From an uncultured Phycisphaerales bacterium (lineage in GTDB: Bacteria > Planctomycetota > Phycisphaerae > Tepidisphaerales > Tepidisphaeraceae), in contig CAWJPJ010000008.1 in assembly GCA_963844715.1 (NCBI GenBank), positions 416,001-480,000 of the forward strand: DNA of 64,000 nt, read 5' to 3'. Shown one piece after another: positions 45,001 to 48,000 of this stretch. The position numbers are program-made. Each line of letters opens with the position of its first letter. The first letter of the stretch is position 1.

Positions 45001-48000
45001 AATATATTCTCAGCCATCTCGACGAAAACTCCTTCGGGACGCGCGCCCTGGGCGTGGTCTTGTCGATCGTATTCATCTACATCGTCGGGGTATTCGTGGG
45101 GAATCTGATCGGGCGCACGGCGTGGGCGCTCGTGGAACGGGGTCTCTTGCGCATTCCGCTGGTTCGGGCGATTTATCCGGCTGTGAAGCAAATTACCGAT
45201 TTCGTCCTGGCGGATCATTCGCGGCAATTCAGCGGCAGCCGGGTCGTGGCGGTGCAGCCGCACGAGCAGAATATCTGGTCGATTGGTCTGGTAACCAGCG
45301 CCGGGCCGTGGAAGCTGGCGGAGGCGGATCCGGAGGAGATGGTGACGGTTTTTGTGCCGTCGACGCCGACAAGTTTTAGCGGATATGTTCTGGTGGTGCC
45401 CCGTAAACGGGTGGTGGAATTGCCGATGACAGTGGAAGAGGCGTTTCGACTGCTGGTCAGCGGCGGGGTGATCGCGCCCGAGGCGGAAAAGCTGCTGGGG
45501 CATGAGATGCCGCCCGCGTCGCCGGGCAGACATGACGCGGTGGCCCCGGTGCGTTAAGCTTTGCATCGTCGGCGCGGCCTTGCGCGACGATTTGCGGTAC
45601 AATGAAATACCGATTGGATCCGGGCCGCCGGTCCCATCTTGAAGGAGGTTTGCGTGCTGCTTGTCGTTTCGTCGCGTCATTTGGAAGTAACAGGGCCACT
45701 CAAGACTTACGCGGAACAGAAGGCGTCGAAACTGACGCGGTATTTTGACCGGATTCAGGAGATTGAAGTCATCTTCGACACCGCCAAGCAGAAGGCCAGG
45801 GTGGAGATGATCGTCCACGCGGAGCATCGGGCCCGTTTTGTGGCGACGTTCGCGCACGAGGACGCATACGCCTGCGTGGACGGGTGCATGGACAAGCTCG
45901 AGCGGCAGTTGTCGGAACACAAGAAGAAATATCGGAATCGCAAACACGCGTCCACGGACAAGCGCCAAATGCGGCGCACGGGATAAGGAATTTGGATCGC
46001 CGATCGAAAGGTTGCAGTGACCATGAAGTTGAAGGAATTCATCGCGACCGAGGCCATCGTTCCCAGCCTCCAGGCGTCGGATCGCGACGGGGCTCTGAGG
46101 GAACTGGTCGAGGCGCTGACGGCGGCGGGATCGCTGCCGGCGGCGGCGGTCGAGGAAGTGATCGCGGCGCTGATCAAGCGCGAACAGAACGGCTCGACGG
46201 GGTTCGGCAAGGGTGTGGCGGTCCCGCACGTGAAGCATGCGAAAGTGAAGCAGATGTCCGGCACGATCGGACGAAGCGCCGCCGGAATCGACTTTGCGGC
46301 GCTGGATCATCAGCCGGTTTACACCGTGGTGTTGCTTCTTTCCCCCGAGAATCAGCCGCAGCAGCATCTCCAGGCGATGAATATCGTCTTCAGCAATCTT
46401 CAAAAGGACATGTTCCGCCGGTTTTTGCGACAGGCCTCAACCCGCGAAGCGATCGTGGACCTGATCGACGAAGCCGATCAGGGGAAATAATCCGCCGCCG
46501 CAGCTCTCGAGCGCGGCTGAATAACCCGGCGTCCATGGCGACCATCTGGCGAGACATCATCGTGCAAAATTCTCTTGGACTGCACGCGCGGCCCGCGATG
46601 GCGTTTGTCGATATGGCGAATCAATTCAATTCCAAGGTCACCGTCATCAAGGGCGGCGACGAACCCTATGAAGCGGACGGCAAAAGCGTCATGCAGATGA
46701 TCATCCTTGCAGCCACGCAAGGTACGCCCCTGCGGATCAGCGCCGAAGGCGAAGACGCGGAGGCGGCCGTCGCAAGTCTTGCTAAACTATTCGAAGACAA
46801 GTTCGGCGAAGAATGAAGAGTAGTTGCGAGTTGCCAGTTGCCAGTTGCCAGTGAAGAGGGCCAAGCATTTATGCCAGTGAGGCATTATCGCGATCTCGTG
46901 GCGTGGCAGAAGGCAATGGACCTGGTCGTGGAAGTCTATCGGTTGACGCAGCGATTTCCGCGCGACGAGCAGTTTGGGTTGACCAACCAATTGCGAAGGG
47001 CTTCGGTGTCCGTGCCGTCGAATATCGCTGAAGGGCAGGGGCGGCGGCTGCAAAAGCAATTTGCCATGTTCCTGCGTGTGGCGCGGCTCAGTGCAGGAAG
47101 TCGAAACACAGCTTTTGATTGCCGAGAGACTTGGCTACGTAGAATCAGATCAGCTTGATGCCGTCCGCGCGTGCGCAAGAGGTAAGTCGGTTAGTCTCGG
47201 GACTAATCAAAGCGGTCGACCCCGCGTAACGGGAGGCATTGACTGGCAACTGGCAACTGGCAACTGGCAACTATTAAGTAAGTCATGGAAATTAAAAAGG
47301 GCATAGGCGTTTCCCCCGGCGTGGTCATCGGCACGGCTCTCGTGCTCGACGCGGAGGATTTGGCTATTCCCAAGCGGCAGGTCGCGGTGGCGGGCGTCGA
47401 TGCGGAGATGGCGCGGCTCGATCTGGCAATCCAGGAGACGATCGGCGATCTCACTAAATTGCGCGACGACATCGTTGCCAAGCAGGGGCGGGACATTGCC
47501 GGGATTTTCGATTTTCACATCGGGATTCTGCGCGATCCGTCGGTGATCAAGCCGATGCAGCAGGAGATTACCGCGAATCATCGACCGCGGAGTATGCCGT
47601 CAGTTCGGTGATGCGGAAGTACGCCACGGTGTTTTCCACGATGGGAGACCGGTATCTGTCGGAAGCGCGTCAAGGACGTGCACGATGTGGAGCGACAGGT
47701 TCTTCGGCGGCTGATCGGGCAGAAGAAACTGGATTTGACGCGCCTGGACGCGGACGCGATCGTGATCGCGCACGACATGTTGCCGAGCCAGACGGCGACG
47801 CTGGACAAGAAGCATGTGAAGGGGTTTGCCACCGACGCGGGCGGGCGGACGAGTCATACGGCGATCGTGGCGCGGGCGATGGGCATTCCGGCCGTCGTGG
47901 GATTGGGCGACATCACCTCCGAGGTGAACAGCGGCGATCTGGTGATCCTGGACGGGAATCATGGCGTACTAATCATCGATCCGGACGAGCAGGTCGTCGC

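Follow-up and report, generated by a model that had tools for sequence, protein, structure and literature searches.

What is an element of the kind that interrupts 23S rRNA genes doing between ptsH and ptsI, two genes of a sugar-phosphotransferase operon, and how might it have arrived there? The window analysed here (a stretch of 64,000 nucleotides from an uncultured Phycisphaerales bacterium) holds such an insert, built around a gene of the PF05635 family. By examining its anatomy, its copies elsewhere in the genome, the same spacers in relatives and the flanks of PF05635 genes across phyla, we arrive at a reading that we consider probable: the insert is a cassette that is inherited but also comes and goes; read-through of the operon transcribes it, RNase III probably excises it, and it decays to solo hairpins.

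The preliminary description placed a cassette between ptsH and ptsI, and the arms, the fold, the Pfam match and the gene boundaries agree with it (Table 1). The spacings that it gave are also those read from the sequence: the ptsH stop ends at 46816 with the left arm beginning 5 nt on, and the right arm ends 12 nt upstream of the ptsI ATG at 47285. In an inverted-repeat search the arms are 35 nt each, 94% complementary and 383 nt apart, and TRF resolves them into 4.4 copies of AGTTGCC (46822-46852, 95% matches) and 4.4 copies of ACTGGCA (47242-47272, 100%); they are intergenic arrays of period 7, within the two to six copies by which heptamer arrays are defined. The 468-nt ptsH-ptsI spacer folds at -205.3 kcal/mol with the arms paired in both the minimum-energy and the centroid fold, and none of 100 dinucleotide shuffles was as stable (mean -170.7, sd 6.2, z -5.5). 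Like an rRNA intervening sequence, the cassette encloses its ORF in a stem of at least 20 bp made by terminal inverted repeats; it is not itself located in a 23S rRNA helix, but this genome has a sister element that is. A terminator reading of the element was rejected because inspection of the sequence found no T-run 3' of the right arm, although some ORF-less copies have one. No promoter is visible in the cassette.

Table 1. Positions of the ptsH-ptsI cassette, its parts, the neighbouring genes and related elements in the window.
Feature	Position	Strand	Evidence and remarks
IS4/IS5-type insertion sequence, TIR CTAGGGCCTGTCTGATGAATC	33229..34121	-	Inserted at CTAG of the AGTTGC array at 34120..34179
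ORF-less hairpin, AGTTGC arm family	34120..34179		Elsewhere within the window
hpf (S30AE / sigma-54 modulation protein), at the head of the co-directional run	45639..45986	+	PF02482, E 7.9e-21
ptsN-like EIIA-2	46017..46490	+	PF00359, E 6.2e-26
ptsH (HPr)	46535..46816	+	PF00381, E 5.5e-27; sequence
Hairpin-flanked PF05635 cassette	46821-47273	+	Between ptsH and ptsI, sugar-phosphotransferase operon
Left arm, (AGTTGCC)x4.4	46821..46855	+	Inverted repeat, TRF; five AGT triplets at 7-nt spacing
Purine-rich Shine-Dalgarno-like GAAGAGG	46853..46859	+	Inner edge of left arm; ATG 11 nt downstream (sequence)
PF05635 / TIGR02436 four-helix-bundle ORF	46871..47229	+	Pfam E 2.3e-26; three-frame reading; short-read contigs
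Right arm, (ACTGGCA)x4.4, complement of left arm	47239..47273	+	Inverted repeat, TRF, fold
ptsI (enzyme I; PEP-utilising enzyme)	47285..49024	+	PF05524, PF00391, PF02896

In the assembly, ptsI is split by indels (47285-47611 and 47678-49024), the contigs having one more base after 47581 and one fewer at 47663. The cassette ORF, which had been suspected of a frameshift in its 3' part, reads in frame 1, then 2, then 3; the breaks do exist in the assembly, but short-read contigs (runs X1 and X2) have two extra bases after 47080 (GC) and after 47170 (GT) that restore a single frame, so the ORF is intact and its apparent frameshifts are assembly errors. An intact 120-aa ortholog is present in the congener G001, whose cassette shares 75% identity across an alignment of 457 nt, close to the 76% given before. 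The intact ORF is under purifying selection (pN 0.15-0.28 and pS 0.64-0.86 against congener orthologs). A second copy of the insertion sequence listed in Table 1 lies at 53895-54788.

Residues 1-72 of the window ORF match PF05635 at 92.5 bits (cut-off 33.8; E 2.3e-26), which places it in the family, and the G001 ortholog scores 119.7 bits against TIGR02436 (cut-off 24) and 141.1 bits against NF008911 (cut-off 137). The family motif, given as GxxRxxxSxxxNxxE in a passage of PMC3936711, is present from its arginine onwards (R-x3-S-x3-N-x2-E, reading QLRRASVSVPSNIAEG) with the leading G replaced by Q; R43, S47 and N51 vary little or not at all in the family alignment. The closest solved homologues, PDB 2gsc (E 1e-25) and 2rld, were both deposited with five chains, and XCC0516, according to a passage of PMC4990558 and the reference list of PMC3936711, is a pentamer built of four-helix bundles. 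By homology to 2gsc and 2rld the window protein is predicted to be a pentamer of four-helix bundles as well, and judged by sequence it is a relative of XCC0516 and, distantly, of the Avd protein of diversity-generating retroelements (DGRs), with weak matches to PF22296 bAvd (E 2e-4, 22.2 bits against a cut-off of 40) and NF033474 (at most 29.4 bits against 80). With the Avd profiles below cut-off and no PF00078 match the element does not qualify as such a retroelement; nor were any template or variable repeats seen. Movement by a retro-mechanism with an Avd-like cofactor was set aside because no reverse transcriptase was found (0 PF00078 matches in a genome that is 85% complete), and membership of a defence system because none of the three ORFs tested had a PADLOC match. 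We know of no catalytic motif and no nuclease activity in the PF05635 family.

A profile search of the genome returned nine PF05635 matches at seven places (where six genes had been counted before), including the 23S rRNA and DUF58-batA copies. The 23S copy lies within the LSU rRNA match and replaces the loop of a hairpin at about Rfam model positions 1203-1226, and Pfam matches on all three genes confirm the order DUF58, PF05635, BatA and, with it, the cassette reported from that site. As the preliminary description held, the 23S, ptsH-ptsI and DUF58-batA inserts are alike, each a PF05635 ORF inside long inverted arrays of short tandem repeats. It also listed three ORFs as lacking a terminal stem: two are indeed atypical (C4:89907 has a hairpin upstream only, C8:124889 has arrays upstream and within the ORF), but at C5:92608 the right arm has been displaced by an insertion sequence, and the counterpart in G002 has clean inverted arms. 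Arms differ among the seven copies, with usually one ORF per arm family per genome; the arm of the bat cassette is 46 nt long. Domain searches of the ORF found no transposase domain and no recombinase was seen in the cassette; with no transposase domain, no target-site duplication visible at the nuoD-nuoE site compared, and arms that vary between copies, the element does not qualify as an insertion sequence or a MITE. Five Y1_Tnp genes are carried elsewhere in the genome, two of them flanked by other palindromes. An RNase III gene is present in the genome.

ORF-less hairpin arrays had been said to be scattered through the genome, and at least 114 with arms like the cassettes' were counted, so that there are more than 15 solo hairpins for each intact cassette (114 versus 7). 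The short AGTTGCC hairpins are in the cassette's arm polarity without exception (14 of 14); many cassettes have purine tails like GAAGAGG after the last AGT, and a Shine-Dalgarno-like motif is retained in 9 of 14 ORF-less AGTTG hairpins, as against 20 of 5000 background windows (0.4%). GAAACC/GAATGAC hairpins are collinear with the bat cassette's arm over all its 46 nt, whole arms are common to dozens of dispersed hairpins, and every spacer of the Bat operon contains a GAAACC hairpin. Neither an operon-internal position nor an orientation is preferred by the 114 hairpins (59 lie between co-directional, 32 between convergent and 23 between divergent genes), and those with the Shine-Dalgarno-like motif show no bias in polarity relative to flanking genes (3 with, 5 against). 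Some are followed by terminator-like T-runs. Their loops differ widely, and the hairpins are no recent offspring of a single master element; the abundant families CACAGAG, CGCCAAGA and CGCGGAT have no matching ORF in this genome. Among 61 genomes of the family AGTTGCC arrays are patchy (35 have none, 11 have 10 to 118), and the closest ORF clade is present in 7 of the 11 genomes with at least 10 arrays versus 8 of the 50 others. Five AGT triplets are found in 39 of the AGTTGCC-like arrays of the present genome, four in 15, three in 27 and six in 1.

The cassette design is not peculiar to this genome; it spans phyla. At 111 of 118 distinct PF05635 places, from Planctomycetota, Acidobacteriota, Bacteroidota, Proteobacteria and others, a tandem array of period 6-9 (period 7 in 99) with a median of 4.4 copies stands upstream of the ORF and is usually mirrored downstream; the median over the 114 rows of period-7/8 arrays is likewise 4.4. 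Flanks were compared by ungapped inverted-match scores, since RNA duplex energies of 210-nt and 260-nt flanks had to be dropped (long GC-rich duplexes form in true and mismatched pairs alike). Scores of at least 15 were reached at 26 of 35 class-level loci, against a mean of 8.1, a 99th percentile of 15 and a maximum of 19 in 400 mismatched flank pairs; two ORF clades, with 30 loci apiece, had 29 such loci each. Among loci from other phyla, sampled with a single-protein query that covers only the clade near the ptsH-ptsI ORF, the array has period 7 in 53 of 54 and the unit AGTNNNN in 46 of 54; the mismatched-pair control (maximum 60) was not used for this set because different loci share arm units.

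The ORF and its repeat unit co-diverge. With declining ORF identity the unit drifts from AGTTGCC to AGTTGCT, AGTTGGT, AGTGGGC and AGTCTGC and on to 8-mers, a second ORF clade has AATGAC/GAAACC-type arms, and ORF distance correlates with unit distance (Mantel r 0.364, 0 of 2000 permutations as high), the mean Hamming distance between units being 0.63 at ORF distances below 0.3 versus about 3 for distant pairs. AGT is the commonest trinucleotide in chains of at least four (53 of 118 loci, followed by GTT with 31), and the length of AGT chains peaks at five (28 loci, with four in 16 and six in 6). That the arms belong to the ORF and not to the site is indicated by long nuoD-nuoE spacers in the family (n=16), where inverted arms are found only in the PF05635 carrier (score 30) and the other 15 score 8 or less; of these, 12 contain toxin-antitoxin module (TA-module), DinB, DUF5615 or HTH genes (3 have no Pfam match). 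Where both flanks could be evaluated, the cassette has the orientation of both neighbours in 87 of 114 cases, a count from a crude neighbour-strand caller in which relatives are non-independent samples.

In relatives the same spacers were said to be empty, to contain an ORF-less hairpin or to contain a full cassette, and all three states were found. At ptsH-ptsI the intact cassette is shared with G001, and G002 has an 89-nt ORF-less hairpin; the spacer is at least 39 nt in 22 of 29 family relatives, most of which fold as a hairpin without an ORF, and AGTTGC-type ORF-less arrays occur at this site in several genera. In the accB-accC spacer, G002 has an ORF of 64% identity whose arms consist of AGTTGCT units. 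The accB-accC spacer of the present genome is 470 nt long, with no heptamer arrays and no PF05635 match. The GATTAAGA cassette is found at the 3' end of truA in G002 and at C5:92608 here. Between nuoD and nuoE there is a cassette in G001, a spacer of 2 nt in the present genome and of 1 nt in G002, and, in G071, a solo GAATGCT array that belongs to one family with the G001 cassette; no target-site duplication is visible when filled and empty nuoD-nuoE sites are compared. The bat cassette occupies DUF58-batA in 10 genomes, all three congeners among them, and bat-clade loci with an ORF identity of at least 50% (n=20) are divided between that site (10) and others (10).

The preliminary description called these elements mobile. 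Related ORF-arm units at non-orthologous sites of congeners and the patchy arrays speak for this, and from them we infer mobility, but we found no target-site duplication, transposase or recent event; synonymous sites between congeners are saturated, so every move proposed here would be old. Whether single events at ptsH-ptsI and nuoD-nuoE were gains or losses is uncertain because of the ORF-less AGTTGC arrays in several genera and the solo GAATGCT array of G071, and the same array, with the ORF-less ptsH-ptsI hairpins of most genera, means that old residence followed by ORF loss can explain part of the pattern.

On the reading that we prefer, the insert would belong to a widespread class of cassettes, each combining a PF05635/TIGR02436 gene, a purine-rich ribosome-binding stretch of its own and a pair of inverted arms, about 31-35 nt long, in which a seven-base unit is repeated in tandem about 4.4 times; the ptsH-ptsI element would be of the same kind as the intervening sequence in the genome's 23S rRNA. 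Since it has no visible promoter and is co-directional inside hpf-ptsN-ptsH-ptsI, read-through is its most likely mode of transcription. The arms of the transcript would pair into a stem of about 33 bp, the type of RNase III substrate that rRNA intervening sequences form (RNase III excises ORF-bearing 23S intervening sequences, according to a passage of PMC4990558), and a cut would free the RNA that carries the ORF and detach the ptsH message from that of ptsI. The ORF would be inherited together with its arms, the repeat unit diverging alongside the ORF; units may then be gained at new intergenic sites, and subsequent loss of the ORF would leave solo hairpins. Weighing against this reading are the divergent loops of the ORF-less hairpins, their indifference to operon position and orientation, the abundant hairpin families that no ORF here matches, and the fact that no transposase, recombinase or target-site duplication was seen and no reverse transcriptase was found.

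It is also conceivable, though we think it quite unlikely, that the hairpins came first: they would be host elements like REP or STRR, serving as intercistronic stabilisers, attenuators or terminators, and the ORF would be a passenger lodged in the loop, having entered for example by recombination between arms of same-family hairpins, so that the hairpins are not ORF relics. The excess of ORF-less hairpins over cassettes (114 to 7), the mostly ORF-less ptsH-ptsI spacers of at least 39 nt (22 of 29), the GAAACC hairpins in all Bat operon spacers, the hairpin families without an ORF in this genome and the T-runs after some hairpins fit this view, as do cyanobacterial 7-bp repeat hairpins between operon genes, for which a passage of PMC2670836 proposes roles in transcript stability. 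Against it, the arm unit tracks the ORF clade over genera and phyla and not the host or site, different ORFs within one genome have different arms, and among the 16 long spacers of the nuoD-nuoE hot spot the one with the PF05635 insert is alone in having arms; moreover, ORF-less hairpins are collinear with the non-repetitive order of a cassette's arm, and 9 of 14 retain a Shine-Dalgarno-like remnant (background 0.4%). A purely vertical history, with cassettes as old residents that were only ever lost and with apparent mobility reflecting differential loss of ancient paralogues, is very unlikely in our judgement: the present genome and G002 each have one AGTTGC-clade ORF at different sites, which requires at least one duplication to a new site. 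Half of the 20 bat-clade loci (ORF identity of at least 50%) lie away from DUF58-batA, dozens of dispersed hairpins have whole arms in common, AGTTGCC arrays are patchy (none in 35 of 61 family genomes, 10 to 118 in 11), and the same ORF clade with like arms occurs in distant phyla. Such a history would suit the bat cassette at one site in three congeners and 10 genomes overall, the ptsH-ptsI cassette common to this genome and G001, the ORF-less AGTTGC-type arrays at ptsH-ptsI in several genera, the saturated synonymous divergence and the absence of target-site duplications at the site compared.

A further explanation gives the protein a part: a homopentamer would bind its own arms with one subunit per heptamer, five AGT matching five subunits, and would either spread or maintain hairpins in the manner of RAYT and REPIN or control its own and neighbouring messages in the manner of ToxN and ToxI, heptamer arrays of the STRR and TAACTGA kind being putative binding sites. 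The closest solved homologues were deposited with five chains, and XCC0516 is described as pentameric (a passage of PMC4990558; the reference list of PMC3936711). AGT is kept at a period of 7 nt across phyla while the other four bases vary by ORF clade, it is the leading chain-forming trinucleotide (53 of 118 loci) with a peak at five, and five is also the commonest number in this genome's AGTTGCC-like arrays (39). Usually there is one ORF per arm family per genome, and the closest ORF clade is seen more often in AGTTGCC-rich genomes than in others (7 of 11 versus 8 of 50). Yet about 31 bp also fits an RNase III stem, slippage alone can yield tandem repeats, the family has no catalytic motif that we know of, the association of array and ORF is confounded by shared ancestry, and G071 and G008 are rich in AGTTGCC with no AGTTGCC-armed ORF among the loci fetched from them; we regard this explanation as unlikely, if less so than one in which the hairpins came first.

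To our knowledge, 23S intervening sequences and their conserved ORF have been without a function in the literature since the early 1990s, and STRR and TAACTGA heptamer arrays, catalogued for equally long, without a partner or a mode of spread. The recurrence of the design across phyla and the way in which the repeat unit follows the ORF clade point towards ORF and arrays forming one unit, and the PF05635 family may be tied to the unexplained heptamer repeats of bacterial genomes; if the two do belong together as halves, a single protein and a single oligonucleotide would be enough to put both puzzles to the test. As a tentative possibility, PF05635 proteins would be the partners of heptamer repeats, a homopentamer reading five 7-nt units (a core such as AGT plus four clade-specific bases), with the unit of ORF and arms founding families of solo hairpins as RAYTs do REPINs, and rRNA intervening sequences, operon cassettes, STRR and TAACTGA would be one pan-bacterial selfish or regulatory system with a protein-repeat code. 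If ORF and arrays do form one unit, PF05635 genes in operons and cas loci would be insertions and not functional partners of their neighbours, many intergenic hairpins of Planctomycetota and other phyla would be cassette relics, and cassettes in essential operons (ptsH-ptsI, accB-accC, nuoD-nuoE) might act as RNase III processing sites at which adjacent cistrons are uncoupled.

Several known systems invite comparison. REP/REPIN elements and their RAYTs comprise a usually single-copy gene inside its own inverted repeats and dozens of dispersed hairpins, patchy among relatives; the cassette is like them in having a gene between its own inverted repeats and many dispersed ORF-less copies of the repeat, and unlike them in that the gene encodes a four-helix bundle and not a Y1/HUH transposase, the arms are tandem arrays and the loops are unconserved. 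ToxIN, a type III toxin-antitoxin system, has repeats of about 36 nt whose RNA is bound by a protein oligomer, and the cassette shares with it a tandem array immediately 5' of a small protein gene, here predicted to be on the same transcript; the cassette's repeats differ in being 7 nt long and mirrored downstream, PF05635 has no known nuclease and PADLOC gave no match. Avd of DGRs, a small basic protein that acts together with nucleic acid, is a four-helix bundle and forms pentamers, and the window protein is in the same superfamily by its weak PF22296 and NF033474 matches; unlike Avd, it scores below the cut-offs, with no reverse transcriptase found in the genome and no template or variable repeats seen.

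Occurrence of the family outside rRNA is already in print: passages of PMC3936711 report 23S_rRNA_IVP genes in cas loci, for example between cmr3 and cmr2, from which the authors infer a functional link to CRISPR-Cas, and a figure legend of PMC10910872 has the family among CRISPR-linked genes. There, as here, a family member is wedged tightly between two operon genes, although the cas-locus passages (PMC3936711) do not speak of flanking repeats or of a cassette. The arms resemble STRR (PMC2670836), TAACTGA (PMC4679880) and Nostoc heptamer repeats (bioRxiv 10.1101/2022.06.06.494920), which in the passages concerned are intergenic 7-nt arrays of two to six copies, hairpin-capable, often just 5' of start codons or between operon genes, and apparently horizontal in distribution; TAACTGA, whose reverse complement rotated gives AGTTATC, an AGTNNNN unit, is hosted by Beggiatoaceae, Cyanobacteria and Bacteroidetes (PMC4679880), in mostly direct arrays and not the inverted pairs of the cassette. 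The passages of these three papers make no link to PF05635 ('23S' and 'helix bundle' occur 0 times in PMC4679880), and the titles, abstracts and passages searched, a scope that leaves aside subscription journals and supplements, yielded none between the family and flanking heptamer arrays. In architecture the cassette resembles the ORF-bearing 23S intervening sequences of the Leptospira and Coxiella type, described in passages of PMC4990558, where mobility is an old hypothesis: both are 430-470 nt long, with terminal inverted repeats forming a long stem and an ORF of the same family. The cassette described here differs from them in lying between the protein genes of an operon, in having arms that are heptamer arrays, and in its many ORF-less derivatives.

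Between ptsH, the gene for HPr, and ptsI lies a spacer of 468 nt, measured from the ptsH stop to the ptsI ATG, which is filled by a cassette consisting of an open reading frame between two inverted arms (see table). Both arms are tandem arrays with a period of 7 and 4.4 copies, with AGTTGCC as the left-hand unit and ACTGGCA as the right-hand one. Folded as RNA, the spacer reaches -205.3 kcal/mol with the arms paired with each other, an energy 5.5 sd below that of dinucleotide shuffles (n=100), none of which was as stable. A purine-rich GAAGAGG at the inner edge of the left arm is followed by the ORF, residues 1-72 of which match PF05635 (23S rRNA intervening-sequence protein; E 2.3e-26).

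Features of the ptsH-ptsI region and related elements in the window
Feature	Position in window	Strand	Remarks
hpf, then EIIA-2 (ptsN-like)		+	upstream genes; same strand as ptsH, cassette and ptsI
ptsH (HPr)	stop ends 46816	+	PF00381
Left arm	46821-46855		35 nt; arms 94% complementary
Cassette ORF	ATG at 46871	+	PF05635
Right arm	47239-47273		35 nt; arms 94% complementary
ptsI	ATG at 47285	+	
Insertion sequence, 893 bp	33229-34121		
Insertion sequence, 893 bp	53895-54788		
ORF-less hairpin	34120-34179		adjoins insertion sequence

In the window sequence the cassette ORF is spread over three frames, and the preliminary description suspected that the assembly had introduced frameshifts. Short-read contigs from two soil-metagenome runs (X1 and X2) add two bases each after 47080 and 47170, giving a single frame, and they also mend a break in ptsI; compared with these contigs the window carries small assembly indels at 47080 and 47170 (2 nt) and at 47581 and 47663 (1 nt). 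At the same site, the congener G001 has an uninterrupted ortholog of 120 aa, which scores above the cut-offs of both TIGR02436 and NF008911 and matches the solved XCC0516 (2gsc, an entry with 5 chains; E 1e-25). Because the contigs restore one frame and the G001 ortholog is uninterrupted, the frameshifts are assembly errors, as suspected, and the ORF is intact. Other frameshifts in this assembly should be treated as suspect.

The cassette recognized in that description is real, and its design is more general than was claimed there. At class level (loci of the studied genome and of 28 relatives), the 200 nt upstream and 250 nt downstream of PF05635 genes gave an inverted ungapped match score of at least 15 in 26 of 35 loci; 12 of the 35 exceeded the maximum of 19 seen among 400 mismatched flank pairs (mean 8.1, 99th percentile 15). 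A scan of 185,579 species' genomes with a single protein returned 55 loci, spanning Planctomycetia, Acidobacteriota, Gemmatimonadota, Bacteroidota, Alpha- and Deltaproteobacteria, Armatimonadia, Saccharibacteria, Brocadia and others. Among the 54 cross-phylum loci analysed, 53 have a period-7 upstream array and 46 a unit that can be written as AGTNNNN, the chance that a 7-mer contains a particular trinucleotide in at least one of its rotations being about 10%. The STRR unit sequences CCCCAGT and CAACAGT would also be AGTNNNN units. When the sets are pooled, an upstream array of period 6-9 is present in 120 of 127 rows, that is, at 111 of 118 distinct places (nine rows are duplicate fetches of the same places), and the period is 7 in 107 rows (99 places), with a median of 4.4 copies (interquartile range 3.75-5.1). 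Counts across relatives include one unpublished genome (G004) as one row, and the conclusions are independent of it.

Within the studied genome, a genome-wide profile search finds PF05635 matches at seven places. One copy lies in the 23S rRNA, where it replaces a hairpin loop at about positions 1203-1226 of the Rfam LSU model, a hairpin that we take to be helix 45, the classical intervening-sequence site; another separates a DUF58 gene from batA. The repeat units differ from copy to copy (GGTGTGAA, AGTTGCC, CTAGAAA, GAAACC/GAATGAC, GATTAAGA and others), and since each copy has its own unit, the possibility that the arms are conserved ends of the transposase type is ruled out. Departures from the clean design are seen at C4:89907, which has an upstream hairpin only, at C8:124889, with arrays upstream and within the ORF, and at C5:92608, where an insertion sequence displaces the right arm; in the counterpart of this last copy in G002, another congener, the inverted arms are perfect. 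The displacing IS-like element (C5:93027-93922; about 896 bp, TIR AGAGCCTCTAACAAAAATGC, about 15 other copies) is found beside or within TCTTAA/GATTAAGA arrays. The PF05635 gene at C8:124889-125209 and that at locus L074 of G002 carry a GAAATCT-type heptamer array within the reading frame, with a C-terminal extension beyond it, and look as if the ORF reads through a former right arm. Throughout the Bat operon region (C6:587524-594608), every intergenic spacer contains a GAAACC/GAATGAC-type hairpin, one of which holds the PF05635 ORF. A PF05635 cassette with AGAGACG arms (L069, in G001) sits at a loop position of a DnaE-like paralog; at the same position a paralog in the studied genome (C6:1096980-1097500) has a 200-nt GGGAGAGGG-type repeat insert, apparently read in frame, and another of its DnaE-like paralogs is uninterrupted there.

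The arms track their ORF rather than the site or host in which it is found. When the G001 ORF was used as the query, 29 of the 30 family loci recovered have arms; the unit is AGTTGCC or AGTTGCT at 53-71% ORF identity and, as identity falls, becomes AGTTGTT, AGTTGGT, AGTGGTT, AGTGGGC, AGTCTGC or AGTAGGC, with 8- or 9-mers at about 40%. In the ORF clade of the DUF58-batA cassette, 29 of 30 loci likewise possess arms, built from AATGAC/GAAACC-type units that shift with ORF divergence. A Mantel test on 64 loci correlates ORF distance with the Hamming distance of the units at 0.364, a value reached by none of 2000 permutations; units differ on average at 0.63 of 7 positions where the ORF distance is below 0.3, and at about 3 positions in distant pairs. 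Because relatedness inflates such tests, we read this correlation as co-inheritance and not as proof of recognition. An internal control is provided by the nuoD-nuoE junction, an insertion hot spot in the family (L166-L195, 30 family genomes), where 16 spacers exceed 300 nt and inverted arms (score 30) occur solely in the one that bears PF05635, the scores of the other 15 being at most 8. Twelve of these 15 contain VapBC, HicAB, DUF5615, DinB_2 or HTH genes, and a Pfam search of the other 3 gave no match. Spacers at this junction measure 1-2 nt in two genomes versus 359-1161 nt in 16, and a PF05635 cassette is found there in G041, as it is in G001.

Cassette sites turn over among relatives. 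Across 30 family genomes, the ptsH-ptsI spacer measures 0-24 nt in 6, 39-55 nt in 2, 157-277 nt in 3 and 69-100 nt in 18; the last group mostly folds as hairpins, and at least 10 of the 18 are, by eye, inverted tandem arrays (of GGGTTCA, AGTTGCT, CCGTGGT, GATTTGC, AGCCAGG, GATAGTT and others). Among these 30, only the studied genome has an ORF in the spacer; G001, from outside the sample, has an intact cassette there, and G002 has an 89-nt AGTTGCC-like hairpin. The only ORF of this clade in G002 lies between accB and accC, is 64% identical and has AGTTGCT arms, and the corresponding 470-nt spacer of the studied genome (C3:40865-41487) contains no heptamer arrays and no PF05635 match. The 3' end of truA bears a GATTAAGA cassette in G002 and a GAATGAC-type ORF-less hairpin in the studied genome, whose own GATTAAGA cassette, with 76% amino acid identity to that of G002, is the one at C5:92608. 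Bat-clade loci with at least 50% ORF identity (n=20) are divided between DUF58-batA (10) and other sites (10). At nuoD-nuoE the spacer is 2 nt in the studied genome and 1 nt in G002, and it is occupied by the cassette in G001; since a further genome (G071) has there a solo array of the unit found in G001's cassette, the change could run in either direction. AGTTGCC arrays (three units with at most 2 mismatches; at most 4 matches per genome, and none in most, for a reversed-pattern control) are patchy among 61 family genomes, with none in 35 and 10 to 118 matches in 11. An ORF sharing 50% or more identity with the query occurs in 7 of the 11 array-rich genomes versus 8 of the 50 others, kin among these genomes not being independent.

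The arms are shared with solo, ORF-less hairpins. About 98 AGTTGCC-like arrays are present in the studied genome, including 14 short hairpins that all have the polarity (AGTTGCC)n-loop-(GGCAACT)n and end sequences as in the cassette; a scan built on TRF recovered 114 hairpins that lack an ORF, belonging to about eight families (GAAACC/GAATGAC, 44; CACAGAG, 15; AGTTGCC, 13-14). The Shine-Dalgarno-like inner motif of the cassette, AGT[GA]AAGA, is kept on one strand in 9 of 14 AGTTG hairpins versus 20 of 5000 background windows. Hairpins of the GAAACC/GAATGAC family align collinearly with the entire 46-nt arm of the DUF58-batA cassette, and the loops vary between copies. This pattern fits independent ORF loss from many cassettes better than the copying of one miniature element. 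An IS4/IS5-type insertion sequence of 893 bp (DUF4096 and DDE_Tnp_1; TIR CTAGGGCCTGTCTGATGAATC; about 30 copies genome-wide) is found repeatedly at CTAG within AGTTGC heptamer arrays. Hairpins of different families are also nested (C4:93282-93399, C6:857696-857813 and C8:609491-609636; for example, an AGTTGCC array in a CACAGATGG stem), an arrangement which suggests that insertion also takes place into the loops of hairpins.

Comparison of congeners gave pN of 0.15-0.28 versus pS of 0.64-0.86, values showing that purifying selection acts on the proteins and that the "congeners" split long ago. When neighbour strands were called by a crude method, 87 of 114 cassettes were co-oriented with both neighbours; the ORF-less hairpins are without such a bias (of 114, the neighbouring genes are co-directional for 59, convergent for 32 and divergent for 23). 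We read the co-orientation of cassettes as survivorship, a promoter-less ORF being retained only at places that host transcription traverses. ORF-bearing rRNA intervening sequences are described as excised by RNase III within the terminal stem (PMC4990558), and an RNase III gene is present in the studied genome. By analogy, the arms would pair in the operon transcript into a stem of about 33 bp, which this RNase III would be expected to cut, and such a cut would free the ORF RNA and split the ptsH from the ptsI message. As to movement, neither a transposase nor a target duplication was found for the cassettes, nor a reverse transcriptase in a search of the studied genome. Its five Y1 transposase genes lie apart from the cassettes, with different palindromes at the two whose flanks are visible; the Y1 (HUH) genes at C7:855760-856580 and C6:877801-878592 have their own palindromes (GACTCCCGACCCC type) on their flanks, and this is a separate REP/RAYT-like system. 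The mobility of the cassettes and their RNA processing are both well-motivated proposals.

AGT is the trinucleotide most often chained at 7-nt spacing in left arms, with chains of at least four in 53 of 118 loci and a peak at five (28 loci, compared with 16 for four and 6 for six); in the AGTTGCC-like arrays of the studied genome, five AGT is the mode and in effect a cap (39 arrays with five, 1 with six). Homologues with solved structures are pentamers (PMC4990558), and a bolder reading, a putative match of one subunit per heptamer, would explain the tandem form, the array length and the clade-specific variable bases. Heptamer arrays have been described between hupS and hupL (7-bp repeats; PMC2670836) and, as sets of two to six TAACTGA copies preceding start codons, in Beggiatoaceae, Cyanobacteria and Bacteroidetes (PMC4679880); in the available excerpts of both papers their partner is left open and the PF05635 family is not mentioned. 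PF05635 genes wedged between cas genes have been interpreted as CRISPR-associated (PMC3936711; PMC10910872). The cassette represents a novel form of the intervening-sequence element, one that sits in an operon, has heptamer arrays as arms and has left numerous solo hairpins as progeny.
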